Source of the DNA: Armatimonadota bacterium
GTDB lineage: Bacteria > Armatimonadota > Fimbriimonadia > Fimbriimonadales > ATM1
NCBI GenBank assembly: GCA_040289295.1
Contig: PSLA01000001.1
Location: 33,287 to 97,286, forward strand
Length of the DNA stretch: 64,000 bases
Reading direction: 5' to 3'
The notes under the pieces were generated by a model. The model had not been told where the DNA came from. It made no database searches and worked only from the letters and a program-made list of their open reading frames with translations. The translations under genes and the position numbers were made by a program. Of the stretch, positions 4,077 to 64,000 are shown in pieces (position 1 is the stretch's first letter; every line of letters starts with the position of its first letter).

Positions 4077-5468
4077 GTGGAGACCCAAAAAATCTACAAC
4101 ACCCTCACGCGAAGCCTCGTTGACTTTATACCGCGTGACCCAAACCGCGTAACCATCTACTCCTGCGGTTTAACGCCACAAGCGCCGGCCCACTTAGGTC
4201 ACATGCGCGGTGCAGTGCTCTTCGACGTGGTCAGACGGTGGTTCGAGTACAAAGGGTTTACCGTAGATTTCGTCCAGAACTTCACCGACATTGACGACAA
4301 GATTATTCGGAGAAGTCAAGAGGAGGGCATCCCGCCCGCCGAGGTTGCCAAGAAGTACGGCGAACAGTACCTTGATGACCTCGCCGCGCTTGGCGTTCGC
4401 CCAGCCCGTTGGGTGTACGTCACCGAGAACATGGACGCCATCATCGAGATGATCGAGCGAATCGTCGAGCGTGGCAACGCCTATGTCGTTGATGGGGATG
4501 TTTATTTCCGAGTTACCTCACTTCCGGGGTATGGAAAGTTGAGCAACCGCTCGCTTGAAAGCATGCAGGCTGGCGCGCGCATCGAAGTGGACGAGCGCAA
4601 AGAACACCCGATGGACTTCGCACTGTGGAAAGCTGCCAAACCCGGAGAGCCATCCTGGAAAAGCCCGTGGGGACCGGGCCGACCCGGATGGCACATCGAG
4701 TGCTCCGCACTCTCTCTAAAAGAGCTTGGCCCGAACTTCGACATCCACGCAGGCGGCACGGACCTAATCTTTCCCCACCATGAGAACGAGATAGCCCAGT
4801 CCGAGGCGTACCTTGGCAAACCGGAGTTCGCCCGGATCTGGATGCACTGGGGCGCGGTGAGAATGTCGGGCGACAAGATGAGCAAGTCTTTCGGTAACGT
4901 TTTCAACGCTCGAGACGCGATTACCAGGTACGGTCCAGCTGCCGTACGGCTTTTCCTGCTCGGCACAGGGTACCGCTCGCCTATCGAGTTCTCCGAGGAG
5001 CGCCTTGACCAGGCACAGGCGGTCGTCTCTCGCATCAATGCAGCCCTCGGACGCGCGCGGAGCGCTTTGGGGCCTGAGGCGGATGCCAAGCCCGCGTCCG
5101 ACGTCATAGCCCGCTTCGAGGCAGCGATGCTCGCTGATTTCAACACTCCTGCCGCTTTCGCCGTGCTCCACGACGCCATCGGCGAGATGAACGACCTGCT
5201 TGCGTCGGGGGCCCAAGTGGATTCTGCTCGGCTCGCCTCACTGTACTCTGCCGCTCGCTGGGTCGTCAATCACCTGGGACTTCCGCTCGACCAGGATGAT
5301 GTCGAGGCTGGATTTGTTGAAGAACTGATGGCAAAAGTGCTAAAATGGAGGCAAGCGTTGCGTGAACAGAAGCTGTTCGCTCTCGCCGACCAGGTTAGGG
5401 ATGACCTGGCAGAACTGGGCATCGTCCTGGAGGATGGAGTCGAAGGAACGACATGGCGAAGAAAGTGA
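4077..5468 (+). CDS. cysS: Cysteinyl-tRNA synthetase
   Basis: HIGH-type motif (PAHLGHMRG), KMSKS motif and WHIECS zinc site. I chose the GTG start at 4077 (VETQKIYNTLTR), in frame within track ORF 3888..5468. The upstream extension overlaps the previous gene. Confidence 0.93.
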   Translation: METQKIYNTLTRSLVDFIPRDPNRVTIYSCGLTPQAPAHLGHMRGAVLFDVVRRWFEYKGFTVDFVQNFTDIDDKIIRRSQEEGIPPAEVAKKYGEQYLDDLAALGVRPARWVYVTENMDAIIEMIERIVERGNAYVVDGDVYFRVTSLPGYGKLSNRSLESMQAGARIEVDERKEHPMDFALWKAAKPGEPSWKSPWGPGRPGWHIECSALSLKELGPNFDIHAGGTDLIFPHHENEIAQSEAYLGKPEFARIWMHWGAVRMSGDKMSKSFGNVFNARDAITRYGPAAVRLFLLGTGYRSPIEFSEERLDQAQAVVSRINAALGRARSALGPEADAKPASDVIARFEAAMLADFNTPAAFAVLHDAIGEMNDLLASGAQVDSARLASLYSAARWVVNHLGLPLDQDDVEAGFVEELMAKVLKWRQALREQKLFALADQVRDDLAELGIVLEDGVEGTTWRRK

Positions 5469-6937
5469 ACCGAATAAGAAGGGCGTTTTCTCTTGTACTT
5501 TTCCTTCTTCTCGTGGCAACGGCTGGCACGATGACAGTCGTATCCCTGCTGGCACCGAGGGCAGCTCCCGGGACCACGTTCGCGGGTATGAGCCTTGATG
5601 GGATGACTCGCCAGGAGGTGCTTCGCGCTTTTGAACGCTGGTGGGAGGCGGACCGGCAACGTATTATAACACTGGAAAGCCACTTGCTTTCGAAGAACCC
5701 TCCTCCACAGGCACTTGAGACGCTGGGGGTGGAACCTGATTTCGAGGCCATGCTGGACCAGATCCCCTTCGTCTCGGCTTTGGGAAGCTGGATCGCCAGC
5801 CACCCATCTGCCACGAACGTGCATCCTCGGTACAAGCCAGCAGAACCGAAAGCCGAAGGCCTTGCGCAATTCGTCTCTGAGCATGCGCTACCCAAGCAAC
5901 CTGCCCGCGTCTTTTACCGCGACGGAAGAATCGTTCGGCAGTACGAGGCCACTTCTTTCGAGTTCAATGTCAACTTGCTTGCTGAACGAGCAGTCGCGAT
6001 GGCGAACAAAGGAGGGGAACGAATGGAGCTGCCCGTGCGCGCGACCGATCCTCGCGTCCCGAGGGAATCGGTGGACTCCATTGCGGAAGTCATGGCGAGC
6101 TTCACGACCAGGTTCAACGCTGGACAGGTAAGTCGCTCGAGCAACATCCGCCTCGCTGCGGACAGACTGAACGGCATCGTGCTCATGCCCGGCGACGTGC
6201 TCAGTTACAACGAAACAGTTGGCAGGCGCACCACATCGCGAGGCTTCAAGCCAGCGGGAGTCTACGCGAACGGACGACACGGCGTGGACTATGGTGGTGG
6301 CATTTGCCAAGTGAGCACAACGCTCTTCAATGCTGCCTTGCTGGCGAACCTCAAAGTTGTATCACGGCAGAACCACTCTATGCCTGTGCCGTATGTGCCG
6401 GTCGGCCGCGACGCAACCGTTGACTACGGCAGCATTGATTTGAAGATACAGAATCCATTCGACCATCCGATCGCCATTTGCTCCGAGGTGAAGGGCGGGA
6501 AGGTCACCTTCTGGGTGCTTGGGCGCAAGGCCCCCGAGTTGAGTGTGTCCCTCGTCGTAGACGGCCATTCGTCGTGGGGCCCAACGGTTCGGTACATTGA
6601 CGACCCTTCGCTCGAACCTGGCACGACCGTTGTCGTTGAACCGGGTAGTACCGGACGGCGCTGCGTCACGTGGCGGCTGGTGATGCGACACGGCAAGGTC
6701 GTTGCCCGCGAAAAGATCGCCGAGAGCGTCTACCGCGCGTGGCCGAGAATCGTGCGACGGGGCCCCCGCGCACCGACACCCGTTGCTAACCCGGCCGACG
6801 GCGCAGAACACGCGACAACACCGCCCCTCACCCCCGACCCCTCTCCCGACGGGAGAGGGGAGCAAGCCCACCTAACGCATCTCGGCAATAAGGTCGGCGT
6901 AACGCTCCCGCACGACGCGACGCTTCACCTTCATTGA
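5453..6937 (+). CDS. VanW-family protein with N-terminal membrane anchor and G5-like C-terminal domain
   Basis: VanW core motif GGGICQVSTTLFNAALLANL and N-terminal TM segment FSLVLFLLLVATAG. The last ~35 codons run through repeat copy 6824..6860 and overlap the convergent gene by 66 nt. Confidence 0.8.
   Translation: MAKKVNRIRRAFSLVLFLLLVATAGTMTVVSLLAPRAAPGTTFAGMSLDGMTRQEVLRAFERWWEADRQRIITLESHLLSKNPPPQALETLGVEPDFEAMLDQIPFVSALGSWIASHPSATNVHPRYKPAEPKAEGLAQFVSEHALPKQPARVFYRDGRIVRQYEATSFEFNVNLLAERAVAMANKGGERMELPVRATDPRVPRESVDSIAEVMASFTTRFNAGQVSRSSNIRLAADRLNGIVLMPGDVLSYNETVGRRTTSRGFKPAGVYANGRHGVDYGGGICQVSTTLFNAALLANLKVVSRQNHSMPVPYVPVGRDATVDYGSIDLKIQNPFDHPIAICSEVKGGKVTFWVLGRKAPELSVSLVVDGHSSWGPTVRYIDDPSLEPGTTVVVEPGSTGRRCVTWRLVMRHGKVVAREKIAESVYRAWPRIVRRGPRAPTPVANPADGAEHATTPPLTPDPSPDGRGEQAHLTHLGNKVGVTLPHDATLHLH
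6824..6860 (-). repeat. Family-1 palindromic repeat, copy a (inverted orientation, divergent)
   Basis: CCCCTCACCCCCGACCCCTCTCCCGACGGGAGAGGGG is the reverse complement of the consensus CCCTCTCCC-NNN-GGGAGAGGG-TTGGGGTGAGGG. Confidence 0.85.
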
Positions 6938-18900: not shown

Positions 18901-19380
18901 CCAAGGCAAGCCACCGATCGGAGGCTGTGTATCGCGGACTTCTTCGCGCCCAAAGATTCGGGCAGGATGGACGTCGCAGCCTTCCACCTTGTTACCATCG
19001 GAAGCAAGGTGACCGAGCTGGAACGCAAGTTGTTCGCAGAAGGTCAGTACGAGGACTATCTTCTCGTTCACGGCATGGGCGTCGAAACAGCGGAAGCGCT
19101 TGCGGAGTACTGGCACAAGCGAATTCGACAAGAGCTTGGCATCGCGGACGAAGACCCAGACGAAATCCGGCTGCTGTTCAGCGTGAAGTATCGAGGATGC
19201 CGCTACTCATTCGGCTATCCAGCATGCCCGAACCTCGAAGACCAAGCGACGTTGTTCCGCCTGCTCGGGCCCGAAGAGATCGGTGTCGAGCTGACCGAGG
19301 AGTTCATGCTCGTGCCGGAGCAAAGCACCAGTGCGATCATCTGTCACCATCCGGACGCGAAGTACTTCAACCTCCGATGA
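15901..19380 (+). CDS. metH: Cobalamin-dependent methionine synthase
   Basis: Hcy-binding domain (GGCCGTTP), pterin-binding domain, B12-binding motif GDVHDIGKN and a C-terminal activation domain. 1159 aa. Confidence 0.93.
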   Translation: MKEWLTAGEQSEIVRAMQSRVLICDGAAGTQIQATNLTTEDFDGLDGCNEYLNLSRPDVIAEIHCKYLEAGADVIQTNTFGAIRYVLDEYDVGDKLEEISAAAARIAREQADRFSTPDKPRFVLGGIGPGTRLVTLGNVSFDDVVESYRSAFIELIRGGVDGLLLETLQDLLHAKAGLVAVAEAMEETSKTLPVFVQVTMEQTGTMLMGSDILAVINAVSAFPYVICLGLNCATGPEEMVPHVRALSKHWPGFISVQPNAGLPVMEKGEAVYKLTPEELATFHRRFVSEFGVNLVGGCCGTTPKHIEAVAEAVAGLTTAKRDAVEPLVGLSSLYQFQPYDQSPSFLIVGERTNANGSKMFRELLAAEDWQALTEMAREQEREGAHVLDVCAAYVGRDEARDMDRLLFEFARQVTVPIMIDSTEVNVIEASLKRLPGKPVINSINFEDGDARTEKVLTLCRKYGAAVVGLTIDEKGMAKTKERKVAIADRILEWTRRFGIPDEDVFIDALTFTLGSGDAEFRSAGIETIAAIREIKRKYPRVNTLLGVSNISFGLKPHARHILNSVFLHYALEAGLTSAIVHSARIMPEHQVDKEVWEVARRLVFNERTEESDPLVEFMALFENVEQRMESEKLESLPIEERLKRHIIDGTKKDLERDLDEALQTHTPLQIINDILLDGMKVVGDLFGEGKMQLPFVLQSAEVMKAAVKHLEPKMEKVEGGERGSIVLATVAGDVHDIGKNLVDIILSNNGFRVVNIGIKQPLSAILQAAEEHKVQAIGMSGLLVKSTVVMKDNLAEMNELGKHHYPVLLGGAALTRGYVEQDLRSLYKGKVWYAQDAFEGLKLMKAIAGGDDAQLVEEEPKPTTPQRSVPSHRVSSDTERFYVFDGVTSDVAKDVPIPEPPFLGRRVATDINIEDVYEYINEIALFRGQWGFRRPKEMSNPEFQKYLEETAAPRFERLKKELRDVFDPRVVYGYFPAQSEGNDLILYDPETREEFERITFPRQATDRRLCIADFFAPKDSGRMDVAAFHLVTIGSKVTELERKLFAEGQYEDYLLVHGMGVETAEALAEYWHKRIRQELGIADEDPDEIRLLFSVKYRGCRYSFGYPACPNLEDQATLFRLLGPEEIGVELTEEFMLVPEQSTSAIICHHPDAKYFNLR

Positions 19381-19384
19381 TGGT

Positions 19385-21940
19385 ATGCTTCCAATGATGT
19401 GCCTCGCGGTCGCCGTATACCTTCTTATCACCCCAATCCTCCCCCTTTGGGAGAGGGCCGGGGTGAGGGAGCCCCCCCTCTCCCTCTGGGAGAGGGCTGG
19501 GGTGAGGGAGCTTTTCGCCCTAACGACGGCAGCAGAGGGTCCCCCTCCCCCTTTGCGAAAGCGTTGTGGCGAGCGCCCTACATGCCTGCAAGACCTGCTC
19601 GCCGAAGCACGAGCCGCGGAGCATGAGGGGAAGACGGCGGAGGCGATACGGCTTTATCGCGCCTACTTGCGCGAGCACCCCGACGAGTTCATCGCACTCT
19701 ACAACCTCGGAGCGCTGCTGATCCGCACCGGGCAGCCCAACGACGCGCTGGAGGCTGAGCCGAATCGCCTGGAGCCGCGGATGGCACTCGCCAACGCGTA
19801 CCTGCTGCTCAACGAGCCGCTGACGGCACTGGAGGTTCTGCGACCGGCGGAGGCTACTGGGGCAAACGTTCCGGAGTACTGGAGCCTGCGTGCCGGAGTG
19901 GAGGCCTCGATAGGCGACGGGGCTGCCACCGCGTCCGCGCGCCGAGCAAAGAGCCTGGCGCCGAAGCGCTTTGACCTGGCTATGCAGGCTGCCGCGATCT
20001 TCGTCGCCTTCGGCAAGCACGCGGAGGCGGCGGACGCCTACAGGGACGCAGCGCTTCTGAGCCCTGGCGACCCAGCGCCCGTGCTCGGAGAGGCCCGCGT
20101 TCTGATTGCCATGGGCAACCCACAACAGGCTGCGGAACTGTGCGAGTCGGCGTATTCTCGCTTTCCGACCAACGCCGAGATCGCCGAGCAGCATGCGCGG
20201 GCACTGCTGACGCTGAGCCGTGCTGAAGATGCCCTGAGTGTGTTGGATGCGGCGCAGGGTCGTGGGGTAGACCGACTGTCGTTGGCGGTGGCTCGCGCGG
20301 AGGTTCTTCAAGCCCTCCAGAGGCATAGCGAGGCGCTTCGCGCGCTCAATGAGGCACTCGAGAGCCGACCGGACGACACGCGCGCTCTGGCGGCGCGATC
20401 GCGACTGCACCTCCTCTCGAAGCGATACAAGGAAGCAGAGCGAGACGCGGACATGGCGATGCGCGTTGCCCCGCGGTGGCGGGAGGCGTACCTTCTCGCG
20501 CTCGAGGTCGCCCGCGCACAGAACAAGTCCCACGCGGAGGAGGTAATTCTACGCAACTGGATCGCGAATGCACCGGAGCAGCCCGAGGCTTATCCAATTC
20601 TTCTCCAGATTCTCCTAAAACGAGAAGCATGGTCGGAAGTCGGAGTGCTCGCGGACTTCTATCTGAGAATTCGGCCCAACGACAAAGAGGCGCTCGGCAT
20701 GCTGGCGCAGGCGTTTCTGGGAAGCGGAGACGTCGGGACAGCCATCGAACGCCTGAACGCCGCCTTCGCACGAGGCGTCGAAAGCGAGCAACTGTACCTC
20801 TACCTTGCTTTGTGCTATCGTAAGCAACAGTCCGCCGCAGAGGCGATTCGCGTGCTCGAAACGCTTGTGCGCAAGTATCCCAACTCCGAACGAGGCTGGT
20901 CGTTGCTGGCGACGATTCAGGAGCCGCAACGCCCCGACGCCGCGCTCGTTGTGTATGACCGGATGCTTGCGGCGCTACCTGGCAACCTGGAAGCGATAAA
21001 GGGACGCGCGCGGATGCTGAGCCGGTTGCAGCGCCACGAAGAGTCGGCACGCGAGTGGATCCGCCTCGCTGAGTTGCAAGGTTCAAAGGGGCCGTACTAT
21101 TTCGCCGCGATGGAGTGGGCAGCCGCAGGCAAACCGGAGCAAGCCGACGCGATGTTCGCGCGTCTCCGAGATCAACACAAAGAGGATGTGGACCTGTTTG
21201 TGGTTCACGCGCAGTACCTCGCCGATTCGGAGCGACTAGACGAAGCGCTGACTGTTTTCAAGGGGATAACGCACATCGCCCCGACCGACCCTCGGGGCTA
21301 TCTCGCCGGTGGACGCGCGCTGGTGGACCGACACCGACCCGATGCTGCGATTGACCTCCTGCTCCCCGGTGGCAGACATCTCTACAAAGACTTTCAATAC
21401 TTCCGACTGCTCGAAGAAGCGGCGCTGAAAGCGCAAAGGCCTGATGTCATCGCCACCGTGACGGAAGACCTCGTTGAGCGAGGGCTGTTTTCTCTGCCTA
21501 TGGTTGTCGCGTATGTGAACGCACAAGCGCGCAAGAAGGCCATCGCAGCCGCCATTGCGCGCCTCGAGCGAGCAGCGAAGGACCATCCAAACGAGATGGC
21601 TGTTTTCTTCGGCTTGGCACGAGCCAAGGCGTTGAACAACGACGGAAAAGGCGCACTGGAGGCACTTGACCGAGCTGTTGACCTGGCCCCCTCCGACGTG
21701 GAAGTGCTCCAGGTGTATGCCCAAGCAGCCGAGGCGGCGCAGGACCCCCAGCGAGCCGCTCGAGCCTACGGGCTACTCGCCGTTGCGCTGCCGAACGACT
21801 CACGCTACGTTCTCAAGCAGGCGGGCTACCTCAGGGAACTGGGGCGAAAGGACGAGGCCATCGCCGTCTTGCGGCAGGCTCGCGATCGCTTCCCCAATGA
21901 CAGCGAGATTGTCGAGATGCTCCGCGCGCTCGGCGGCTGA
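19385..21940 (+). CDS. Large TPR-repeat protein
   Basis: Many TPR-like helical repeats (AIRLYRAYLREHPDEFIALYNLGALL and others). The start is uncertain. The first ~45 codons after ATG 19385 include two repeat copies, and the real start could be downstream (for example TTG near 19553). Confidence 0.72.
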   Translation: MLPMMCLAVAVYLLITPILPLWERAGVREPPLSLWERAGVRELFALTTAAEGPPPPLRKRCGERPTCLQDLLAEARAAEHEGKTAEAIRLYRAYLREHPDEFIALYNLGALLIRTGQPNDALEAEPNRLEPRMALANAYLLLNEPLTALEVLRPAEATGANVPEYWSLRAGVEASIGDGAATASARRAKSLAPKRFDLAMQAAAIFVAFGKHAEAADAYRDAALLSPGDPAPVLGEARVLIAMGNPQQAAELCESAYSRFPTNAEIAEQHARALLTLSRAEDALSVLDAAQGRGVDRLSLAVARAEVLQALQRHSEALRALNEALESRPDDTRALAARSRLHLLSKRYKEAERDADMAMRVAPRWREAYLLALEVARAQNKSHAEEVILRNWIANAPEQPEAYPILLQILLKREAWSEVGVLADFYLRIRPNDKEALGMLAQAFLGSGDVGTAIERLNAAFARGVESEQLYLYLALCYRKQQSAAEAIRVLETLVRKYPNSERGWSLLATIQEPQRPDAALVVYDRMLAALPGNLEAIKGRARMLSRLQRHEESAREWIRLAELQGSKGPYYFAAMEWAAAGKPEQADAMFARLRDQHKEDVDLFVVHAQYLADSERLDEALTVFKGITHIAPTDPRGYLAGGRALVDRHRPDAAIDLLLPGGRHLYKDFQYFRLLEEAALKAQRPDVIATVTEDLVERGLFSLPMVVAYVNAQARKKAIAAAIARLERAAKDHPNEMAVFFGLARAKALNNDGKGALEALDRAVDLAPSDVEVLQVYAQAAEAAQDPQRAARAYGLLAVALPNDSRYVLKQAGYLRELGRKDEAIAVLRQARDRFPNDSEIVEMLRALGG
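19437..19469 (+). repeat. Family-1 repeat, copy b1 (degenerate left arm)
   Basis: TCCTCCCCCTTTGGGAGAGGGCCGGGGTGAGGG. Confidence 0.8.
19476..19508 (+). repeat. Family-1 repeat, copy b2
   Basis: CCCTCTCCCTCTGGGAGAGGGCTGGGGTGAGGG, 6 nt after copy b1. Confidence 0.9.
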
Positions 21941-52777: not shown

Positions 52778-53481
52778 GCCGCATCCCCAACGCGTGCCTG
52801 GTAACGGGAGCCAGCAGCGGTATCGGCCGTGCGGTGGCGCTTTGTCTTGCGCGACGAGGCGTGCACGTGGCGCTCAACGGGCGCAACCGGGAACGACTTG
52901 AACAGACCCGTCAAGCCTGTGCCGAAAGCGGCGTGGATGCGTTCGCTGTTGATGGCGACGCGGCCGACGAGGCGGTACTGCGCGAGCTCTTACTCCTCTT
53001 GCCGGAAGGGCCGATTGGAGCCGTCTTCGCCGCGGGCTACGCCCGTTTCGGTGATACTCTGTCGCTCGAAGCCGAAGTCTGGGACTCCAGCATTCACGCC
53101 AACCTAACCGCACTCTATCATGGCAATCGACTTGCGATTGAGGGCATGCTTTCTCGGGGCGGAGGGCGCATCTTGAACGTCTTGAGCGTGGCGAGCAGGG
53201 TCGCGTTCCCCTCCTCGGCGGCGTACGTCGCTTCGAAGTACGGCGCGCTCGGACTCACGCGGAGCCTCGCGGCTGAGTTTCGTTCGCGCGGGATCGAAAT
53301 CATCGCCTTCATGCCCGGCTCAACCAACACCGAGTTGTGGAACAGCCAGGGCGCGGCGCCCGACCGCGAACGCATGATGAAACCGGAAGACGTCGCCACC
53401 GCGGTGGCGAACGCGATCCTGCACGAGGGCGACGCTTTCTTCGACGAGGTGCTACTAATGCCTCCGGGGGGGGTGTTGTGA
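52774..53481 (+). CDS. Classical short-chain dehydrogenase/reductase (sepiapterin-reductase-like candidate), inferred CTG start
   Basis: [10 protein letters not shown] (52804-52833), NVLSVAS and YVASKYG (YxxxK). The first canonical start, GTG 52834, would remove the cofactor-binding motif. Confidence 0.78.
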
Positions 53482-54509
53482 TGCGGGTCGGCATCATCGG
53501 CGCAGGAGCTATGGGGCGGACGCACGCGCGGCACTATTCGAAGATGGACGACGTCTCCCTCATCGTCTTCGACATCGAGCGCGAGTCCGCGGAGTCGCTT
53601 CGAAGCCAAGCGGCGAACGCCAGCGTTTGCAACAGCCTCGATCAACTTCTGTCCAGCGTGGACGCGGTTGACGTCTGCCTGCCTACGCATCTACACAAGG
53701 AGGTCGTCCTCACGGCGCTCGAAGCGAAGCTACCCACCCTCTGCGAAAAACCCCTCGCGCGCACCGTTGCCGAGTGCGCCGAGATGGTGGATGCGGCGTA
53801 TCGCCACAGCACGTTGCTCATTCCCGCGCAGGTCGTCCGCTTCTTCCCGGAGTTCGAAACTGCGCACAGGGTCGTTAAGTCGGGGAGATTGGGTGTCATC
53901 TCTGCCATACGAACGCGACGGGGCGGCGCGCAGCCCAGAGGCGCAGGCGAATGGTTCCGCAACCCAGACCTTTCGGGCGGAGTCCTGTTGGACCTCGCTG
54001 TGCACGACTTCGACTGGATTCTGTGGACGTTTGGGCCTGTCGCGCGAGTGTTCTCTCAGGCACTGACCTGGTCGAACGTCGGCGCGCTGGATTACGCGCT
54101 GACGATTTTGACCCTCGATAGCGGCGCGCTCGCCCACGTGGAGGCGACATGGGCAGATCCGGGCGGCTTCCGAGTGACGTTCGAGGTCGTCGGTTCGGAG
54201 GCGCTCCTCGAGTTCGACAGTCGGCTGAAGGCCACGCTGCGAACGGCCACAGACCCCCTCTCCCTGTGGGAGAGGGTTGGGGTGAGGGCAGCTGAGTCCA
54301 ACCTTGCGCCGTGCGACGATCCTTACTTCAAGCAACTGCGCGCGTTCTTGAAGGCAGCTATGGGAGAGGCGCCTCCCGCCGTTCGTCCTGAGGAGGGAAT
54401 GGCCGCCGTGGCAGTTGCGGAGGCGGCGATCGAAAGCGCATGCAGCGGCAGGCCTGTGGCCCCCTCGCGAATCGAACCCCGGCGAACTGCCGAGGCGTCT
54501 GAGATCTGA
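53481..54509 (+). CDS. Gfo/Idh/MocA-family oxidoreductase (contains one in-frame repeat copy)
   Basis: [19 protein letters not shown] Rossmann motif and the CEKPLA motif. TGATG overlap with the SDR stop. Repeat-encoded segment [15 protein letters not shown]. Confidence 0.8.
   Translation: MRVGIIGAGAMGRTHARHYSKMDDVSLIVFDIERESAESLRSQAANASVCNSLDQLLSSVDAVDVCLPTHLHKEVVLTALEAKLPTLCEKPLARTVAECAEMVDAAYRHSTLLIPAQVVRFFPEFETAHRVVKSGRLGVISAIRTRRGGAQPRGAGEWFRNPDLSGGVLLDLAVHDFDWILWTFGPVARVFSQALTWSNVGALDYALTILTLDSGALAHVEATWADPGGFRVTFEVVGSEALLEFDSRLKATLRTATDPLSLWERVGVRAAESNLAPCDDPYFKQLRAFLKAAMGEAPPAVRPEEGMAAVAVAEAAIESACSGRPVAPSRIEPRRTAEASEI
54256..54292 (+). repeat. Family-1 repeat, copy c
   Basis: CCCTCTCCCTGTGGGAGAGGGTTGGGGTGAGGGCAGC, inside the oxidoreductase ORF. 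Confidence 0.92.
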
Positions 54510-56977
54510 TGATGCTCCTCCCTTTCGCGCTCCTTCTGGGGCAAAGCACCGAGCCGTCAGGGGTCTGGCAAGGTCAGGAGTGGCGTGTGAACCCGGCGCA
54601 CGCGTTGATTTGGGATGGTCGCGCGTACACGCCGGTGGGCCTGGCAGTGCCGGCAGCGACGGAGGCGATCCGCAAGGCGGAAAGCGCGGGTGTTAAAGAC
54701 CTTATGATCGAGGCAAGCCTAACCGATGATTGGGCGGCTGCGTTCGCTGCGGCGGAGCGTCTGTCCGCTCGCTACCTGTTGTCCCTGAACGAGCGTATGC
54801 CGCAAGCCTCCGGATGGCTGTGCACACCCGAGGCATTACGGGTTCTGAACGTCAGTCATCGTTCGGTGGTGGAGGTCGCATTGCCGGGCGCAGTGCGGGC
54901 GTACTTTGTGGTCGTTGGACCGTCGTCTTCCATCATGGCGCGTGGCTGGGCGACGATGCACTTCGGCAAGGCCTCCGTGGAAGTGAACCTGAAGGTTAGC
55001 GCGGACGACTACCAGGTGCTTCTCTTCCCACTGATGCGAGAGAGCGACCTCGTGGACTATTGGGAGGGGCTGGACGCAAGGCGCGACGAAGTAATACGAA
55101 AACTGAGGGACGCTGCACCAGGAAAGGGGCTCCGCGGCATAGTAAATCCGTTTGGCCGACCCCCGTCTCACTTCCTCTCCCTGCGGGAGAGGGTTGGGGT
55201 GAGGGCAGCAGACGGCTGGACGACGTCCGGCGGGATCGTGCCCGATTCTATTCTGTTCCGCCTCGAGTTTGAACAGTATCTTCGGGAGAAGTATCAGACG
55301 ATCGAGGCGCTCGCACGCGCATGGCGCATTGACCCGCTGGGGCTCAAGACTTTCGCCGAGGCCGCGGCGCTGATTCCACTCTTCTCACCCGACATGGGCG
55401 TGGACGCGTTCCTCGACCCAGTGAACGACCGAACCGTCTCCGGCCGCCGGGTTGGATCAAGGTTCTGGGACGACGTGCAAGTGGTCATCGAGAGCGCGTG
55501 CGTTCGAAGGCTTTCTCGACTTGCTTCGGCGACTCGGAGCATCGCCAACGTGCCGGTAGTATACGACTGGGCTGGCTGGAGCCCCCTTCACGAGCGGCGA
55601 GATATCGCCGGCGACGGCATTGGTATCCCTACCGTAGGCGCGGGGCGGACCATAGACTCCCTCTCCCTGTGGGAGAGGGTTGGGGTGAGGGCAGCAGACG
55701 CTCTGTCCTCCGCGCTGGCGTGGGGGTCGCGATCGTGGATCGTAAGCACGCGCATCTGCTTTTCAGAAAACGGCGCACCCTTCCCAACCGAGGCACAGTT
55801 GCGCTCGGTGATTGCAGCGCTCGTGGACCTTGGCGTGAAGGGGTGGTTCGTGGAGAGCACGGGAGGAGACGAGGCAGTGTGGGTGGCTGCGATGAACGGT
55901 GAGGCGCAGCAGGACCTCGCTCTGGGGGACCGCTCTCCGCGCGCCATCTTCTATCCCATCAACGCTCGTTACCCGGCGGACACGATGCAACTCCCTGGCG
56001 GCGTATGGTGGCTTCCCACTCCGGCTGCAGGCGATAGGCTCGATGTGGGTGCGAACTATGAAGCGTACCGCCTCACCGCGCCCTATGATCGGCATATCGC
56101 CATCTGGACGACTGGCGCTCCGCGAAAGACGAAGCTGCTGACACCTAACCCTCAATCTGTAACGCTGCATTCGGTTTCGGGAATGGCTGTTGACGCACGA
56201 GTGGTGCGCGACGGCATAGAGGTTACGATTCGGAATGAGCCGCTGCTAATCTTCGGCGCGGACACGACGCCCGTTCCCGAGGACGCAGTTCAGGAACTAG
56301 TAGAGGCGGAGGCTGCGATTACGGCGGAGGCTGTGCGCAAGGGCGCCGACATTACTGAAGAGCGTTTTCTCTTCGCCGACGCGTTGCGCAAAGCGAAGAC
56401 GTCGCCCGGAGCATCGCTGATGCAGATGACAGAGGCCTATCGCCGAATGCTGCTTAAGGTCGCGCCGTACGTCTGGCGAGAAGGGGAGCGGGCGGACTCG
56501 GCAGGGTTGGGTGTTCGAATGCAGTCAGCGGGCTGCTCGCAGGGAGAGGCGCTGCGGCTGCGGCTGGCCATTCCAGCGCGCTTTGTTCAGGTGGACGGCC
56601 GCGACGGGTTCAATGGAATGAGGGCAGTGTACAAGCTGTCTGTATCCGGCAGCCGCGACGAGCACACGGTGTGGTTGGCTGCGAGGATCCCGGAAGAGTC
56701 TCGACCTTTCGTCCGCGTCGAGGTCAAGGGAGACTCCCTCTCCCCGTGGGAGAGGGTTGGGGTGAGGGCAGCACTGTCCGCACCGCCGGTTTCCGAATAT
56801 GGCGATGGATTCGGGTGGTACCAAGTTGGGACGATGCTCCTACCGAAAGGGGAGTATGAGTTCACAGTTTCCATGGACCCAGGCGCGCCGGTGATGGACA
56901 TGGCGATTGACGTGTTGTTGGCTACGCCTCAACCGTTCCGGCCGTCCGGCCCGCGGATGCCGAGGTTCCTTCGATAG
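54509..56977 (+). CDS. 822-aa secreted/exported protein of unknown function (three in-frame repeat copies)
   Basis: The 2.47-kb ORF is stop-free, whereas antisense ORFs here are under 140 aa. Signal-like N-terminus MMLLPFALLLGQS. TGATG overlap with the upstream gene. No motif I recognise. Confidence 0.6.
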   Translation: MMLLPFALLLGQSTEPSGVWQGQEWRVNPAHALIWDGRAYTPVGLAVPAATEAIRKAESAGVKDLMIEASLTDDWAAAFAAAERLSARYLLSLNERMPQASGWLCTPEALRVLNVSHRSVVEVALPGAVRAYFVVVGPSSSIMARGWATMHFGKASVEVNLKVSADDYQVLLFPLMRESDLVDYWEGLDARRDEVIRKLRDAAPGKGLRGIVNPFGRPPSHFLSLRERVGVRAADGWTTSGGIVPDSILFRLEFEQYLREKYQTIEALARAWRIDPLGLKTFAEAAALIPLFSPDMGVDAFLDPVNDRTVSGRRVGSRFWDDVQVVIESACVRRLSRLASATRSIANVPVVYDWAGWSPLHERRDIAGDGIGIPTVGAGRTIDSLSLWERVGVRAADALSSALAWGSRSWIVSTRICFSENGAPFPTEAQLRSVIAALVDLGVKGWFVESTGGDEAVWVAAMNGEAQQDLALGDRSPRAIFYPINARYPADTMQLPGGVWWLPTPAAGDRLDVGANYEAYRLTAPYDRHIAIWTTGAPRKTKLLTPNPQSVTLHSVSGMAVDARVVRDGIEVTIRNEPLLIFGADTTPVPEDAVQELVEAEAAITAEAVRKGADITEERFLFADALRKAKTSPGASLMQMTEAYRRMLLKVAPYVWREGERADSAGLGVRMQSAGCSQGEALRLRLAIPARFVQVDGRDGFNGMRAVYKLSVSGSRDEHTVWLAARIPEESRPFVRVEVKGDSLSPWERVGVRAALSAPPVSEYGDGFGWYQVGTMLLPKGEYEFTVSMDPGAPVMDMAIDVLLATPQPFRPSGPRMPRFLR
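55173..55213 (+). repeat. Family-1 repeat, copy d
   Basis: TCCTCTCCCTGCGGGAGAGGGTTGGGGTGAGGGCAGCAGAC, inside the 822-aa ORF. Confidence 0.92.
55654..55699 (+). repeat. Family-1 repeat, copy e (bounded by AGAC on both sides)
   Basis: AGAC-TCCCTCTCCCTGTGGGAGAGGGTTGGGGTGAGGGCAGC-AGAC, inside the 822-aa ORF. Confidence 0.92.
56736..56772 (+). repeat. Family-1 repeat, copy f
   Basis: CCCTCTCCCCGTGGGAGAGGGTTGGGGTGAGGGCAGC, inside the 822-aa ORF. Confidence 0.92.
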
Positions 56978-56999
56978 GTTCCGCACGCAGTCTCGTACT

Positions 57000-57032
57000 C
57001 CCTCTCCCTGCGGCAGAGGGTTGGGGTGAGGG
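57000..57032 (+). repeat. Family-1 repeat, copy g (intergenic, between the convergent 822-aa ORF and ftsZ)
   Basis: CCCTCTCCCTGCGGCAGAGGGTTGGGGTGAGGG. Confidence 0.9.
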
Positions 57033-57056
57033 GAACACGGATGCGTTGCGTTACAC

Positions 57057-58325
57057 TTACGACTCCTCTCGCTGCTGCTTGTGCTTGCGGATGAACGCGG
57101 GCACGTCGAGGTCTTCCGGTTGTGTTGACGTTCCGTCCTGCTTTGCGGGGCGAGGGACACCCGTTGCCGGCGCGGTTCCGGGAGGCAAGCTGTTGCCATC
57201 GGTTGCGGCGCGCTCGGTCGCAGGCTGGGGCGTACCGGCGCGCTGATGTACACGCTCGCTCTCTGCGGACGTGGTGGCGCTGGATTCGCGACCCCCTCTC
57301 CCTGTGGGAGAGGGTTGGGGTGAGGGCAGCAGACGCCCCGATTCCGTTCCGGCGGCGCGAGGTGGTCGGGCGGTCGGGTCAAAACCAGCGGCGAGGACGG
57401 TAATGCGGACGTCGCCTTTGAGGGCGTTGTCATACACTGCGCCGAAGATGATGTTGGCGTCGTCCGCCGCCGCAAGGTCTGCGATGTAACTCATCGCCTC
57501 ATTCATCTCCGCTAAGGTGAGGTCCTCCGCGGACGTAACGTTGACGAGGAGTCGGCGTGCGCCGTGGATGTCGCTTTCGAGCAGCGGGTTGGCGACGGCA
57601 GACTGCGCGGCCTGCATCGCACGGTGCTCGCCAGTGCCAATTCCGATGCCCATCAAAGCGGGGCCAGACTGGGACATCACGGCTCGCACGTCTGCGAAGT
57701 CCACGTTGATGAGGCCCGGCACCGTGATGATCTCAGAAATCGCCTGCACGCCTTGGCGCAGTACGTCATCGGCAACGCGAAACGCCTCGATGGTGGATGT
57801 GTGCTTGTCAACTACGGCGAGGAGCCGGTCATTGGGAATAGTGATAATCGTGTCGACGATTTCGGTTAGTTCGGCAATTCCCTTTTGTGCTTTGATTTCG
57901 CGCCCCCGTTCCCACATGAAAGGCTTTGTCACAACGGCGATGGTAAGCGCTCCGACATCCCGGGCGAGCTCCGCGACGATCGGCGACGCTCCGGTTCCGG
58001 TTCCGCCCCCCATACCGGCGGTGATGAAGACGAGGTCCGCGCCGGCAAGCACATCGCGGATCGCTTCTTTGCTCTCTTCGGCTGCTTGCCTTCCCCGTTC
58101 GGGATCGCCTCCCACTCCGAGCCCCCGCGTTACCTTTTCTCCGACTTGGAGTTTCACAGGCGCCTGCGAGTCCTCGAGCGCCTGGGCGTCGGTGTTGATT
58201 GCGACGAACTCGACGCCTCGGACCCCAGTTTCGATCATGCGGTTGACGGCGTTGGAGCCCCCTCCGCCGACGCCTACCACTTTGATTACCGCTTGTCTTT
58301 CAGTGTTCTGCTTCGTTGCACTCAT
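57057..58325 (-). CDS. ftsZ: Cell division GTPase FtsZ
   Basis: [23 protein letters not shown] and the C-terminal peptide [10 protein letters not shown]. Confidence 0.95.
57294..57334 (+). repeat. Family-1 repeat, copy h (inside the ftsZ linker-coding region, antisense to the gene)
   Basis: CCCTCTCCCTGTGGGAGAGGGTTGGGGTGAGGGCAGCAGAC. Confidence 0.92.
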
Positions 58326-60740: not shown

Positions 60741-61484
60741 TTATCTCCAACGGACGGCCGGGCGCTCCGGCACGACCAGATTCACCGTGCGCGCTCGCCG
60801 AAGCAGATCGGGGCTTTGCTCCAACGCCCGCGCCAAGACGGAGACCTTCTCGTCCAACCTTTCCCGGTTGCCAAACTCGACGCGTGCGCCTTCCGTCACC
60901 GTTAAGGCTAACCCACCCGAGGCGAGTAGGCTTAGTTTACCGCCTAAGGAAGGCAACTTTTGTTGTACTTTCGCCGCCAGGTCGAGCAGCCCGCCAAGTC
61001 GACGACTGTCGAAAACGGATAGGTTTGGACTGGATTCCATTAACTTTCCGTCCACCGACAGAGGAGGAGGCTCCCCGATCAGTGGAAAGACAACGCCCTC
61101 AGTGGACACGGCAAACTCCATATCGCCCCGCGTGAACCAAGCCACCGCAGGCCGATACTCGACCTCCAATCGCGCTCGCCCGAAGACGTTTCGACGAAAG
61201 TCTGAGCGTAACACCGCAGGATGCCATTCGACTTGGCGCTCGACCTGAAGTGGGTTGATTCGCAGGGCGGGAATGCCTTCGTAGGCACGCAGCAGTGAGC
61301 CGATTCTCTCGCGGTCCCACGGCGGAACACCGCTGACTCGGACCACGCGAACCTTTGTCATCTCGCTTGTGAACAATCCGGCTAGGACAACTCCGGCGAG
61401 CGCGGTTGAAATCAGCGGCAACTGCACAATCGGAAGGTGCAGTCGAAATCGCCGCGCACGCCTACGCCTACTTCGAGATGCCAT
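60741..61484 (-). CDS. ftsQ: Cell division protein FtsQ/DivIB (POTRA)
   Basis: Arg-rich N-terminus, one TM helix and a POTRA-like VRVVRVSGV... segment. Position between murC-ddl and ftsA. Confidence 0.65.
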   Translation of the reverse strand: MASRSRRRRARRFRLHLPIVQLPLISTALAGVVLAGLFTSEMTKVRVVRVSGVPPWDRERIGSLLRAYEGIPALRINPLQVERQVEWHPAVLRSDFRRNVFGRARLEVEYRPAVAWFTRGDMEFAVSTEGVVFPLIGEPPPLSVDGKLMESSPNLSVFDSRRLGGLLDLAAKVQQKLPSLGGKLSLLASGGLALTVTEGARVEFGNRERLDEKVSVLARALEQSPDLLRRARTVNLVVPERPAVRWR

Positions 61485-63783
61485 ACCTCTCCATCGCGGA
61501 ACGAAGGATGCGCTCGCACAGTTGCGCGAACCCGATACCCACGCTCGCTGCGGAGCGAGGAACGAGGGATGTCGACGTGAGCCCCGGGAGAGTGTTCACC
61601 TCGAGCGCGACAACCTCCTCGTTGCGAGTAACGATGAAGTCGCTACGGCTCAGGTCGCATGCGCCCACAGCGTTGTGCGCGATGAGCGCCGCCTGTCGAA
61701 CCTGTTCCTCTGCCCTCTCGGAGATGCGCGCCGGCACGATCTCTTCCGTGGCGCCGGGCGTGTATTTGGCCGAAAAGTCGTACCGACCTCCCAGGGGTAC
61801 GATCTCGACGGCCGGCAGCGCCTCCTTGCCCACAACCGGCACGCTCACTTCGACACCTTCGACCCACTCCTCTATGAGAGCCGCTTCGTCGTACTTCCAA
61901 GCGATGCGAACGGCTCGTTCCTGTTCATCGCGCCGCCTTACGAACGTCAAGCCGACAGTGGAGCCTTGCGAGTTCGGCTTCACCACAGCCGGGAGCGGAG
62001 CGTTCGGGGGAATCGCCGCTCCTCTGGGTACGAGCATGCCCTCTGGAACGCGCAAACCGGCCGACCTTAAAGCACCCTTAGCGGAGTGCTTATCCATTGC
62101 AAGCGCGCTCGCCGCAACCCCTGACCCCGTGTACGGCACCTCCAGCAGGTCGAGGAGCCCCTGAATACGACCATCCTCCGCGCCGGTGCCGTGCAACGCC
62201 AGAAATGCGACGTCGGGCCGGTCGGGTCCCGTCAGCGCCCGAAGGCCCTCGCCTCCCCAAAGCAACTGCTCTGGATCGAGCGTTATCACGTCGAGGCCCA
62301 ACGACCGAAGCGCATCCGCAACCATCTTGCCGCTCAAGAGTGAGACTTCCCTTTCGGCGGACGCCCCACCTTGAAGGACGGCAACGCGCAACGGACGAGC
62401 GGAACGCTCCAACTCGACGATGAAGGCCCTTGGGAAGGCGTCAATGTTGCCCGCGCCCATCGCTACCACCACATCGCCCGGTACCGCGGAGCGCGCCACC
62501 TCCCGCGCCAATCGGAAGCGTGATGGAACGTAGGAGAGATCTACATCAGCCTGCTCAAGTTGCTGCACGATGAGCAACGAAGAGATGCCCGGTATTGGAG
62601 TCTCGCGTGCGGCATAGATGTCTGTTAGGAATACGCAATCTGCGAGCGCGAGTGTGGGGGCGAACTCGTTCAATAAGTCCCGCGTGCGGCTGTAAAGATG
62701 CGGCTGAAAAACGCACACGAGCCGACGACCGGGATGCGCTTCGCGAAGAGCGCGAAGGGATGCCGCGATTTCCGTTGGGTGATGCGCATAGTCATCGTAG
62801 AGCAGAACGCCGTGATGCTCGCCAAGCGGCTGTAGCCTTCTAACGCAGCCTTTGACGTACTGAACGTACGGCAGCAGTTGTGCGACGTCACAGGAGAGGG
62901 CAACCGATGCGGCGACGACGGCCCCCCACAGGTTCTGGGCGTTGTGCTCGCCGATGAGAGACGGTGTCACGGCAACGGCGCCGTGTTTCAACACCCCTCC
63001 CTCAAACTGTGCGACATAGTCGCCCCGCACAAGACCGTATCCGATCGTTTCGCTGAAACGCGAAGCCACATCGCAAGCGCCCACATCGTCCGCGCAGAAG
63101 ACGAAATTCGGTGCGCCGCTTGCCTTGCGGATAAACGCGGCAACGCTTTCGCGAAGTGCGCCGAACGAGCCGTGGCGATCGAGGTGATCCGCCTCGAGGT
63201 TCGTCAGCACAACCAGATGCGGGTCGAGGTCGAAGTAGCCTTCGTACGCCTCACACGCCTCGACGACAGCCCACGGACCCTCGCCATGCAGCACATTTCC
63301 ATCGAAGCCCAAGACGTCTGCACCCACCAGGGCGAGTGGAGATTCGCCTGCTAGCGCGAGCACCTGTGCGATCGCCGCCGTGACTGTGCTCTTGCCGTGA
63401 GTTCCGGTAACGGCGATGACCTTGTATCCTTCGAGCACGATCCCCAACAGGCGACTTCGGCGGACTCTGGGCAGGCCGAGCCGCGCCGCCTCGACCGCCT
63501 CGGGGTTCTCGTCCAGCGGTATCGCGTCGCTAACGACGACCAGGTCGGCACCTTCCACGGCGCGGGCATGGTGTCCGATGGTGACGCGCGCCCCAAGCTC
63601 GGCGAGATCCGCCGTGGTCTTCGACCTTACCACGTCGCTCCCAGTTACTCGATACTTTCGGGCGAGTAGGACGCGAGCAAGCGCGCTCATGCCGGCACCA
63701 CCGATGCCAATGAAGTGCACCGTTCCCGTCTTAGGCAGGCGTGCATCTGCGCTGAACCAGGTCTGCTCTTCTCGAGTTCTCAT
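61468..63783 (-). CDS. murC-ddl: Fused UDP-N-acetylmuramate--L-alanine ligase / D-alanine--D-alanine ligase
   Basis: The N-terminal half has MurC motifs (HFIGIGGAGMSALA, VTGTHGKST). The C-terminal half is Ddl (LRVAVLQGGASAEREVSLLSG..., ALHGTGAEDGRIQGLL, LEVNTLPGLT). The junction is near 62391. I chose the start at 63783 (MRTREEQ), an ATGA overlap with the murG stop. Confidence 0.9.
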   Translation of the reverse strand: MRTREEQTWFSADARLPKTGTVHFIGIGGAGMSALARVLLARKYRVTGSDVVRSKTTADLAELGARVTIGHHARAVEGADLVVVSDAIPLDENPEAVEAARLGLPRVRRSRLLGIVLEGYKVIAVTGTHGKSTVTAAIAQVLALAGESPLALVGADVLGFDGNVLHGEGPWAVVEACEAYEGYFDLDPHLVVLTNLEADHLDRHGSFGALRESVAAFIRKASGAPNFVFCADDVGACDVASRFSETIGYGLVRGDYVAQFEGGVLKHGAVAVTPSLIGEHNAQNLWGAVVAASVALSCDVAQLLPYVQYVKGCVRRLQPLGEHHGVLLYDDYAHHPTEIAASLRALREAHPGRRLVCVFQPHLYSRTRDLLNEFAPTLALADCVFLTDIYAARETPIPGISSLLIVQQLEQADVDLSYVPSRFRLAREVARSAVPGDVVVAMGAGNIDAFPRAFIVELERSARPLRVAVLQGGASAEREVSLLSGKMVADALRSLGLDVITLDPEQLLWGGEGLRALTGPDRPDVAFLALHGTGAEDGRIQGLLDLLEVPYTGSGVAASALAMDKHSAKGALRSAGLRVPEGMLVPRGAAIPPNAPLPAVVKPNSQGSTVGLTFVRRRDEQERAVRIAWKYDEAALIEEWVEGVEVSVPVVGKEALPAVEIVPLGGRYDFSAKYTPGATEEIVPARISERAEEQVRQAALIAHNAVGACDLSRSDFIVTRNEEVVALEVNTLPGLTSTSLVPRSAASVGIGFAQLCERILRSAMERYGISK

Positions 63784-64000
63784 TGGGCCACTTCCGTTAT
63801 GATGTTCCAAATCCTCTCGGTCGCATCGCGGATGACCCAGCTGCGGAGGGTATCGCTCGCTGCCTGTCGCTTCGCTTCGTCTTCCCGCCAGGTGCGCCAG
63901 GCTGCTGTGAGATGCTCTGGCGTCAACTCGCTTTGCGCGATAACAGTACCGCCGCCGAGCCTCGAGATAACCTCCGCATTGCGCCGCTGATGGTCGGCGT
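63780..64000 (-). CDS. murG: MurG (UDP-GlcNAc transferase), C-terminal 72 codons; gene continues beyond the window
   Basis: My own reverse translation: ADHQRRNAEVISRLGGGTVIAQSELTPEHLTAAWRTW...NIITEVAQ*. DHQ..NA is the MurG C-terminal signature. Position upstream of murC. Confidence 0.75.
   Translation of the reverse strand, partial: ADHQRRNAEVISRLGGGTVIAQSELTPEHLTAAWRTWREDEAKRQAASDTLRSWVIRDATERIWNIITEVAQ

Follow-up and report, generated by a model that had tools for sequence, protein, structure and literature searches.

In a 64-kb window of an Armatimonadota genome (contig PSLA01000001.1; the window is the whole stretch analyzed, and positions below refer to it), an oxidoreductase gene, a gene for a protein of 822 amino acids (aa) and the cell division gene ftsZ follow one another, and these three genes hold an unusual concentration of a short G/C-rich palindromic repeat. 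Six copies lie within 3.1 kb, all on the + strand whatever the strand of the host gene. Five of the six are inside open reading frames (ORFs), in frame, and the remaining one occupies the spacer between the convergent 822-aa gene and ftsZ. We refer to the hot-spot copies by the letters a to f in + strand order, and list them together with their host genes and three further copies in the window in Table 1.

The window was searched for the core of the repeat by pattern matching with up to three mismatches, and 100 dinucleotide-preserving shuffles of the window served as control. The 33-nucleotide (nt) core has the form CCCTCTCCC-N3-GGGAGAGGG-N-TGGGGTGAGGG, or, as three blocks, CCCTCTCCC / GGGAGAGGG / GGGGTGAGGG. 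It occurs with 0-1 mismatch on the + strand at 54256, 55173, 55659, 56736, 57000 and 57294, with further cores at 19437 and 19476, and it has 0 matches in the 100 shuffles. The published pattern of the TMECO repeat fits 9/9 copies in the window with 0-2 mismatches, where 0 are expected by chance, and adds an inverted copy at 6827-6859. The copies are strongly clustered, with six of the nine in 4.8% of the window (binomial P ~1e-6), and the one-strand bias of the hot spot is complete (6/6, P ~0.03). An earlier note on this sequence had listed nine copies, six of them co-oriented within 3.1 kb and five of these in coding sequence. The pattern search and the ORF context confirm this account, except that the start of copy c, given as 55654, is the AGAC in front of a core that begins at 55659. 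Direct reading also bears out that five of the six frames of the element are free of stop codons, the sole stop being a TGA within GGGGTGAGGG in + frame 1. The four intragenic copies on the + strand translate as LS[LP][WR]ERVGVRA, the peptides that had been claimed for them, while ftsZ, on the minus strand, translates the opposite strand of copy f as a 14-residue peptide. The stated residence in an essential gene is correct for ftsZ.

Table 1. Repeat copies and host genes in the window, with the DNA gained and replaced at three sites, and DUF559 (PF04480, Vsr-like) ORFs in other loci that contain the repeat
Feature	Position	Strand	Composition and context	New sequence	Older sequence replaced	Net change
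Host gene 1	53478..54509	+	GFO/IDH/MocA oxidoreductase (Pfam); 343 aa vs 335 aa in relatives; holds copy a			
Host gene 2	54509..56977	+	822 aa, without Pfam match; holds copies b, c, d			
Host gene 3	57057..58325	-	ftsZ; 422 aa vs 404-406 aa in relatives; holds copy f			
Copy a	54251..54292	+	AGACC + core 54256-54288 + CAGC; in frame in GFO/IDH/MocA oxidoreductase	~52 nt	~28 nt	+24 nt (+8 aa)
Copy b	55173..55213	+	core with one mismatch (TCCTCTCCC...) + CAGCAGAC; in frame, 822-aa protein			
Copy c	55654..55699	+	AGACT + perfect core 55659-55691 + CAGCAGAC; in frame, 822-aa protein	~45 nt	~21 nt	+24 nt
Copy d	56731..56773	+	AGACT + core 56736-56768 + CAGCA; in frame, 822-aa protein	~43 nt	~16 nt	+27 nt
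Copy e	57000..57032	+	intergenic, between convergent 822-aa gene and ftsZ			
Copy f	57290..57334	+	GACC + perfect core 57294-57326 + CAGCAGAC; within FtsZ C-terminal linker			
Tandem pair	19437..19508	+	19437-19469 degenerate, 19476-19508 perfect, 39 nt apart; between metH and TPR gene			
Inverted copy	6825..6859	-	convergent gene junction; in C-terminal tail of ORF 5453-6937			
DUF559 ORF	L009:820-1470		Acinetobacter chromosome; between co-oriented copies			
DUF559 ORF	L140:477-1197 = L264:2870-3590		prophage; between portal gene and DUF4055 gene			
DUF559 ORF	L122:5576-6997		DUF559 domain itself in frame inside hsdR			
DUF559 ORF	L258:1930-2413		between co-oriented copies			

Judged by its sequence, the hot-spot repeat is BoxC/PIT/TMECO, a known pan-bacterial element of three G/C-rich blocks and ~45-55 nt. 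The same repeat, also designated HPGQ, is reportedly tied to Bachellier 1999 and Hoyne 2000 as well; to our knowledge it has been known for thirty years, with its mode of spread and its function long unsolved. A 46-nt consensus of the hot-spot copies is 97.6% identical to E. coli copies over 41 nt (40/41), and it finds matches in 4891/5426 complete E. coli genomes at a median of 10 places per genome, including the ilvC-ppiC spacer of K-12. The TMECO pattern, CCCTCNCCC N3-6 GGGNGAGGG N3 GGGNGAGGG, was equated with BoxC and PIT by Holder et al. (2015, PMC4666352), who counted 3610 copies in 262 proteobacterial genomes. In K-12 these copies are always intergenic and show no strand bias, TMECO loci are unusually variable between strains, and an association with mobile elements (plasmids, phages) was not found; earlier work had seen neither promoter nor terminator activity (PMC4666352). 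Single-stranded DNA of the repeat folded into a stable triplex in vitro, and none was detected in vivo (PMC4666352). The same motif was described as a switch between G-quadruplex (G4), hairpin and duplex, with a K+/Mg2+-dependent change between G4 and hairpin in vitro (Kaplan et al. 2016, PMC5100583).

The copies in the window agree with this family in more than sequence. They have the same three blocks and spacing, the hairpin, the purine-triplex geometry and the quadruplex motif; they are interspersed, multi-copy and polymorphic between relatives (nine copies in 64 kb, with six sites empty in relatives); they lack terminal inverted repeats, target-site duplications and a known transposase; and they include pairs or tandems and sites at convergent junctions (copies e, 6825 and 19437/19476). 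They depart from it in setting: BoxC in E. coli K-12 is intergenic and without strand bias, whereas here five of six copies are translated in frame and all six are co-oriented within 3.1 kb, and the host belongs to Armatimonadota rather than to the Proteobacteria whose 262 genomes were surveyed for TMECO. The G-rich strand reads G3-AGA-G3-TT-G4-TGA-G3, which fits the G4 rule (G3N3G3N2G4N3G3) and, by inspection, has purine-triplex geometry; 8/11 G4 motifs in the window are these copies. Three structures could be adopted by the element as single-stranded DNA: a 9-bp hairpin, an intrastrand triplex of the purine motif, and a G-quadruplex. The hairpin has a predicted energy of -10.9 kcal/mol for DNA and about -18 kcal/mol for RNA, which is unexceptional for the base composition when compared with shuffled sequences (z -0.4 to -2.1). 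No Rfam family matches the element at gathering or E-value thresholds, and a terminator and promoter scan found it to have no terminator-like tail.

When core and flanks are compared together (49 nt), copies a, b, c, d and f share 78-94% identity and have the consensus AGAC(T/C)-core-CAGCAGAC. Copy e is the most diverged (73-78% identical to the other hot-spot copies): GGCAGAGGG disrupts its hairpin, and its tail differs. The copies at ~19.4 kb share no more than 59-73% identity with the six and represent another subfamily, with loops TTT/CC and TCT/CT and the tail AGC. The shared flanks of the hot-spot copies and the lower identity of the ~19.4-kb copies indicate that the hot spot consists of one local subfamily. 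Outside it, the inverted copy is located just downstream of an acyl-CoA ligase gene (end 6872). Near the tandem pair, metH ends at 19380, and the ORF 19331-21940 would read both tandem copies as PLWERAGVREPPLSLWERAGVRE, although its real start codon is probably further downstream.

Three syntenic loci from relatives (L001-L003), aligned at the nucleotide level, and an alignment of 11 orthologues of the 822-aa protein were used as comparators. The gene order is the same in all three loci: ABC transporter, PTPS, GTP cyclohydrolase, SDR, oxidoreductase, 822-aa homologue, ftsZ, ftsA and onward. All six hot-spot sites are empty in L001-L003, with flanks that align base for base, and these loci are free both of the element and of other repeat families. 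Some orthologues of the 822-aa protein show 74-82% identity, and others 24-56%, the six of the latter group that entered the alignment having 31-56%. The peptides of sites c and d are missing from 11/11 orthologues. Site b falls in a variable loop, where P0003/L002 and the distant orthologues lack the insert. The peptide of copy f is absent from FtsZ of L001-L003, and the spacer before ftsZ measures 79 nt in the window vs 22-24 nt in relatives. Because the sites are empty in syntenic relatives, the alignments identify the six copies as derived insertions and not as an ancestral peptide motif. The earlier note had proposed insertion and suggested aligning orthologues of the host genes; the alignment supports its proposal at all six sites in three relatives, and for b, c and d in distant orthologues too. 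One of the junctions is also represented in an independent data set. A JGI metagenome contig from the same or a near-identical organism (L128, sample 3300003453) carries identical DUF881 and FtsA genes and ends inside the loop of the ftsZ copy (L128:5180-5220). This end point shows that the insertion is real and that short-read assemblies break at the repeat.

The comparison with empty sites also reveals what was gained and lost in each event. At every copy, 9-28 nt of older sequence was replaced, and neither terminal inverted repeats nor target-site duplications were found at the hot-spot copies. The right flank CAGCAGAC is constant in b, c and f despite the different left 4-mers TCAC, AGAC and CGAC, whereas the tails of a (CAGC) and d (CAGCA) are shortened, so that the ends of the unit are ragged. 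Copy c is bounded by AGAC on both sides and is the only copy for which this holds. The earlier note had read AGAC on both sides of one copy as a possible target-site duplication, and a 38-nt core plus a 4-nt duplication as an insertion of 42 nt. The left AGACT does not exist in the empty sites of relatives, and the right tail is the same in copies with different left 4-mers; AGAC is therefore part of the copied unit, both AGACs lie within the inserted DNA, and the duplication was rejected. Nor do the lengths conform to 42 nt: the net gains at sites a to d are +24, +48, +24 and +27 nt, while ftsZ has gained about +48 nt and the spacer in front of it +55 nt. The net length changes of the host genes are multiples of three.

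Polymorphic loci in E. coli were considered as a source of exact junctions. The filled and empty alleles of ilvC-ppiC have 55 nt vs 14 nt (L125:4447-4501 vs L126/L127), and those of adk-hemH have 158 nt vs ~54 nt between identical flanks (L253:423-580 vs L254). Across the two loci the flanks of the alleles are identical or nearly so. Both loci swap whole short segments, so the primary insertion is not displayed, and they were set aside for this purpose; from their sequences, the allele pairs may be swaps of whole intergenic cassettes, maybe old ones. Targeting by homology or microhomology was rejected as well, since the empty sites of L001-L003 are no more element-like than random 40-nt windows (percentiles 0.07-1.0).

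Among the copies within genes, those that survive are in frame and lie in loops or linkers of the host proteins. The 822-aa protein is confined to Armatimonadota, and its gene always has the GFO/IDH/MocA oxidoreductase gene on one side and ftsZ on the other. An AlphaFold2 model of the protein has a mean predicted local distance difference test (pLDDT) score of 80, and the predicted fold resembles glycosidases of the GH35/GH42 type (beta-galactosidases or rhamnosidases) with an added beta-sandwich domain like a carbohydrate-binding module. The segments of low pLDDT include residues 220-238 (site b), 378-391 (site c) and 745-750 (site d). The FtsZ insert follows the FtsZ_C domain in the variable C-terminal linker and leaves the terminal 10-residue peptide intact, and the FtsZ core is near-identical to that of relatives (90% identity over the whole protein). 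Other lineage-specific gains were observed in these proteins. The FtsZ linker has a second gain of ~7 residues (RVHQRAGT; 57180-57260, residues ~357-364) outside the repeat. In one relative, the 822-aa homologue P0002 (L001:6001-8415) has its own 21-nt near-repeat, CGCGGGGA(T/C)GC(C/T)CG(T/C)TCTCCC, which encodes RGDARSP twice (residues ~222 and ~685), once in the loop of site b and once in a different lineage-specific insert. The same loops of the 822-aa protein have been struck repeatedly by short G/C-rich insertions in separate lineages.

To place the hot spot among other occurrences, we scanned one genome per species for the exact pattern, which gave at least 120 loci with 138 exact copies among the matches listed. 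These include Pseudomonas, Enterobacter, Citrobacter, Klebsiella, Leclercia, Acinetobacter, Variovorax, Geomonas and Akkermansia, as well as Planctomycetota, Chloroflexota, Acidobacteriota, Myxococcota, Omnitrophota, WOR-3, Vampirovibrionales and Methylomirabilis. Repetition of the element outside the window, on which the earlier note had staked its proposal, is therefore evident in many phyla, in E. coli genomes, in viral contigs and on plasmids. A conserved CT or CC stands just 5' of the core in 116/138 exact copies among the matches listed, and neighboring copies in other genomes are often opposite in orientation. Coding residence was assessed over the 138 copies by listing ORFs that continue without a stop for 60 codons or more to either side of a copy, and six cases were then checked by Pfam. 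In-frame copies are found in the YgiQ radical-SAM protein of Polaromonas, in Tex, CobN and a permease of the FtsX/MacB type, in lysyl-tRNA synthetase, where the OB fold lies on one side of the copy and the catalytic domain on the other, and, twice, in the HsdR subunit of a type I restriction enzyme. Where the gene reads the element's own strand, as for LysRS, Tex, CobN and HsdR, the frame used is PLPxGEGxGEG. These in-frame copies in other phyla mean that coding residence is not peculiar to the source genome. The earlier note had called the density, the strict co-orientation and the residence in an essential gene unusual; it identified neither the BoxC/PIT/TMECO family nor the G-quadruplex and purine-triplex motif, nor the in-frame copies in real genes of other phyla. 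A literature search for the encoded peptide strings returned no paper, and the BoxC literature consulted treats the element as intergenic.

The element is also present on mobile DNA. The exact core is contained in at least 120 IMG/VR viral contigs (e.g. L131-L210), and related copies are carried by 481 plasmids, 145 of them typed as conjugative (e.g. L251:2501-2541, NZ_CP026205.1). These plasmid and viral-contig matches differ from the statement that the repeat is not associated with plasmids or phages (PMC4666352). On IncN pKPC plasmids the copy is part of a captured chromosomal ppiC-ilvC-ilvY fragment, and apparently intragenic plasmid matches under ilvC were rejected, as they are the captured ppiC-ilvC spacer overlapping the last 4 nt of ilvC. 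Curated phage genomes contain almost no copies, and metagenome scans with 41-nt and 29-nt strings specific to the hot-spot subfamily gave no match.

We favor local templated copying during replication or repair, followed by selection, as the origin of the hot spot, and assign it a probability of roughly 45% on the basis of the end products. After the lineage split from its nearest sampled relatives, one subfamily multiplied locally to give the six co-oriented copies. A nearby copy would have acted as template for a short patch of DNA synthesis in replication or repair, either because synthesis switched template where the structure had stalled a fork or through short-patch gene conversion. Such a patch would replace from a few to ~28 nt of the target, keep the orientation of the donor, end at variable points and leave no target-site duplication. 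Selection would then keep the events with a net length divisible by three, a stop-free frame (one of five) and a location in a disordered loop or linker. The replacement of older sequence and the variable end points at the hot spot are consistent with this course, as is a similar replacement at the two E. coli loci, and the coincidence of low-pLDDT segments with the three sites in the 822-aa protein, together with the linker position of the ftsZ copy, agrees with the proposed tolerance. The element would probably have no host function here, as tolerated selfish or structural DNA.

Several points weigh against templated copying. The mechanism is read from end products only, and the relatives are 75-90% identical at the protein level, a distance at which later indels in variable loops could mimic replacement. 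The empty targets are not element-like beyond random expectation, which leaves switching guided by microhomology without direct support. At the two E. coli loci, complete intergenic cassettes seem to have been exchanged, and these cases are perhaps not primary events. The exact conservation of the blocks across phyla is easier to obtain with a sequence-specific protein than with structure-driven copying alone. Finally, the view is limited to 64 kb, and GC skew is uninformative on the direction of replication.

A possible but less likely account is that the repeat is a non-autonomous unit moved in trans by an enzyme that recognizes the hairpin on single-stranded DNA at the replication fork. The candidates are a RAYT or an IS200/IS605-type Y1 HUH transposase, or a Vsr-like (PD-(D/E)xK) nuclease with a DUF559 domain; the lagging-strand template would then be the target, which would account for the strict co-orientation. 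Such an enzyme fits the exact conservation of the blocks across phyla along with the 5' CT or CC, the strong variation of copy number between strains (PMC4666352; E. coli matches) and the shared orientation of all six copies in the hot spot, independent of host-gene strand; moreover, HUH enzymes leave no target-site duplication. It is at odds with the ragged ends and the replaced target, which are unlike precise cleavage, with the missing GTAG/CGTC tag typical of REP elements, and with the opposite orientation of neighboring copies that is common in other genomes. The window contains no RayT-like or DUF559 ORF. A tblastn search with E. coli RayT had 0 matches in the window, and in ~1 Mb around the 138 copies it had one weak match (L105, E 6e-4), so that a RayT-like gene exists in 1 of ~120 genomic loci, ~2.5 kb from any copy.

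The DUF559 lead deserves separate treatment. Only three ORFs with this domain were found in 2 Mb of element-containing loci, each between two co-oriented copies, and DUF559 genes are flanked by co-oriented copies in each occurrence (L009, L122, L140/L264 and L258; Table 1). In another Acinetobacter locus an exact copy begins 9 nt past the DUF559 stop codon, and in 58/120 listed DUF559 homologues, with Acinetobacter as the main source, the last two residues are 'SP', as + frame 1 of the first block would encode. Against a role in movement, an identical Acinetobacter DUF559 protein was encountered in one genomic context only. Further DUF559 loci sought in viral contigs yielded only the same contig again. 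The nuclease may serve the repeat as an autonomous partner, or may have the repeat as its preferred landing site; given that the window has no DUF559 gene and that the sample is small, its role stays a hypothesis. A more ambitious synthesis would make BoxC-type elements one pan-bacterial selfish family that spreads by copy-and-replace into intergenic and coding DNA, with no target-site duplication, and crosses phyla by plasmids and phages, perhaps with DUF559 as autonomous partner, the hot spot being a fresh local burst of six independent events. We consider this synthesis doubtful as a whole.

It is quite improbable that the motif is kept by host selection, as a G4/hairpin switch or as a protein-binding site for transcription, translation pausing, mRNA stability or chromosome organization. 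Its very strong conservation across bacteria, the K+/Mg2+-dependent G4-hairpin switch in vitro (PMC5100583) and the predicted RNA hairpin would accord with such a function. The copies in question, however, reside in loops of unrelated proteins and are absent from the orthologues, the hairpin energy is ordinary against shuffles, the mutation in copy e breaks the stem, and there is neither an Rfam match nor a terminator-like tail; in E. coli the element is without promoter or terminator activity and forms no triplex in vivo (PMC4666352). That the six copies are an artefact of assembly or binning, with chimeric joins at the repeat, or an ancestral conserved peptide motif can practically be dismissed: the source is a metagenome-assembled genome and short-read contigs do break at the repeat (L128 ends inside it), but synteny and reading frames run through every copy, the flanks align base for base with relatives, the copies differ slightly among themselves, an independent metagenome has the same ftsZ junction, and the orthologues are without the peptide.

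Other families of small bacterial repeats share part of these properties. REP and REPIN elements, for which movement as single-stranded DNA has been proposed, are likewise short G/C-rich hairpins, often paired and without target-site duplication. The present repeat differs from them in lacking the GTAG/CGTC tag, its left flank being (A)GAC(T/C) and its right flank CAGCAGAC, as well as in its third G-rich block, its intragenic location and the fact that no cognate RAYT was found nearby; copy b is the only copy with a CGTC, ~7 nt upstream. Miniature inverted-repeat transposable elements (Correia, ERIC, RUP) are small, non-coding and interspersed, and some of their copies lie within genes in frame with host ORFs, as here, but our repeat has no terminal inverted repeats matching an insertion sequence and no target-site duplication, and at ~46 nt it is far shorter. 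The closest described parallel for coding residence, by analogy, appears to be the Rickettsia palindromic elements, selfish palindromic repeats that lie in frame in unrelated genes and are tolerated where the fold is undisturbed (PMC10969869). The likeness, in-frame insertion of a palindrome into unrelated genes, is a functional analogy only: going by the review description, those elements are ~100-150 bp long and limited to Rickettsia, in contrast to a unit of ~46 nt that adds 8-16 residues and is present in many phyla.

The locus thus adds a phylum and a coding context to a known repeat family, not a new kind of system. Published BoxC work deals with an intergenic repeat surveyed mainly in Proteobacteria; here a distant phylum has that element in active form with almost no change of sequence, and its niche extends to coding sequence. 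It is able to settle in frame in real genes, essential ones included: ftsZ in the window, and lysS, tex, cobN, hsdR and ygiQ elsewhere. The hot spot offers six recent events, each with an empty-site comparator, and their combination of target replacement with the lack of target-site duplication constrains the mechanism. On the practical side, short-read assemblies break at the repeat, and its translation leads to spurious 'GEG/WER/GRG' hypothetical proteins in annotations. A further observation concerns the division/cell-wall (dcw) cluster, which includes a gene of ~771-780 aa for a fused Mur ligase and D-Ala-D-Ala ligase, at 61468-63810 in the window and at L001:12802-14415 in a relative, with the Pfam domains Mur_ligase, Mur_ligase_M, Mur_ligase_C, Dala_Dala_lig_N and Dala_Dala_lig_C.

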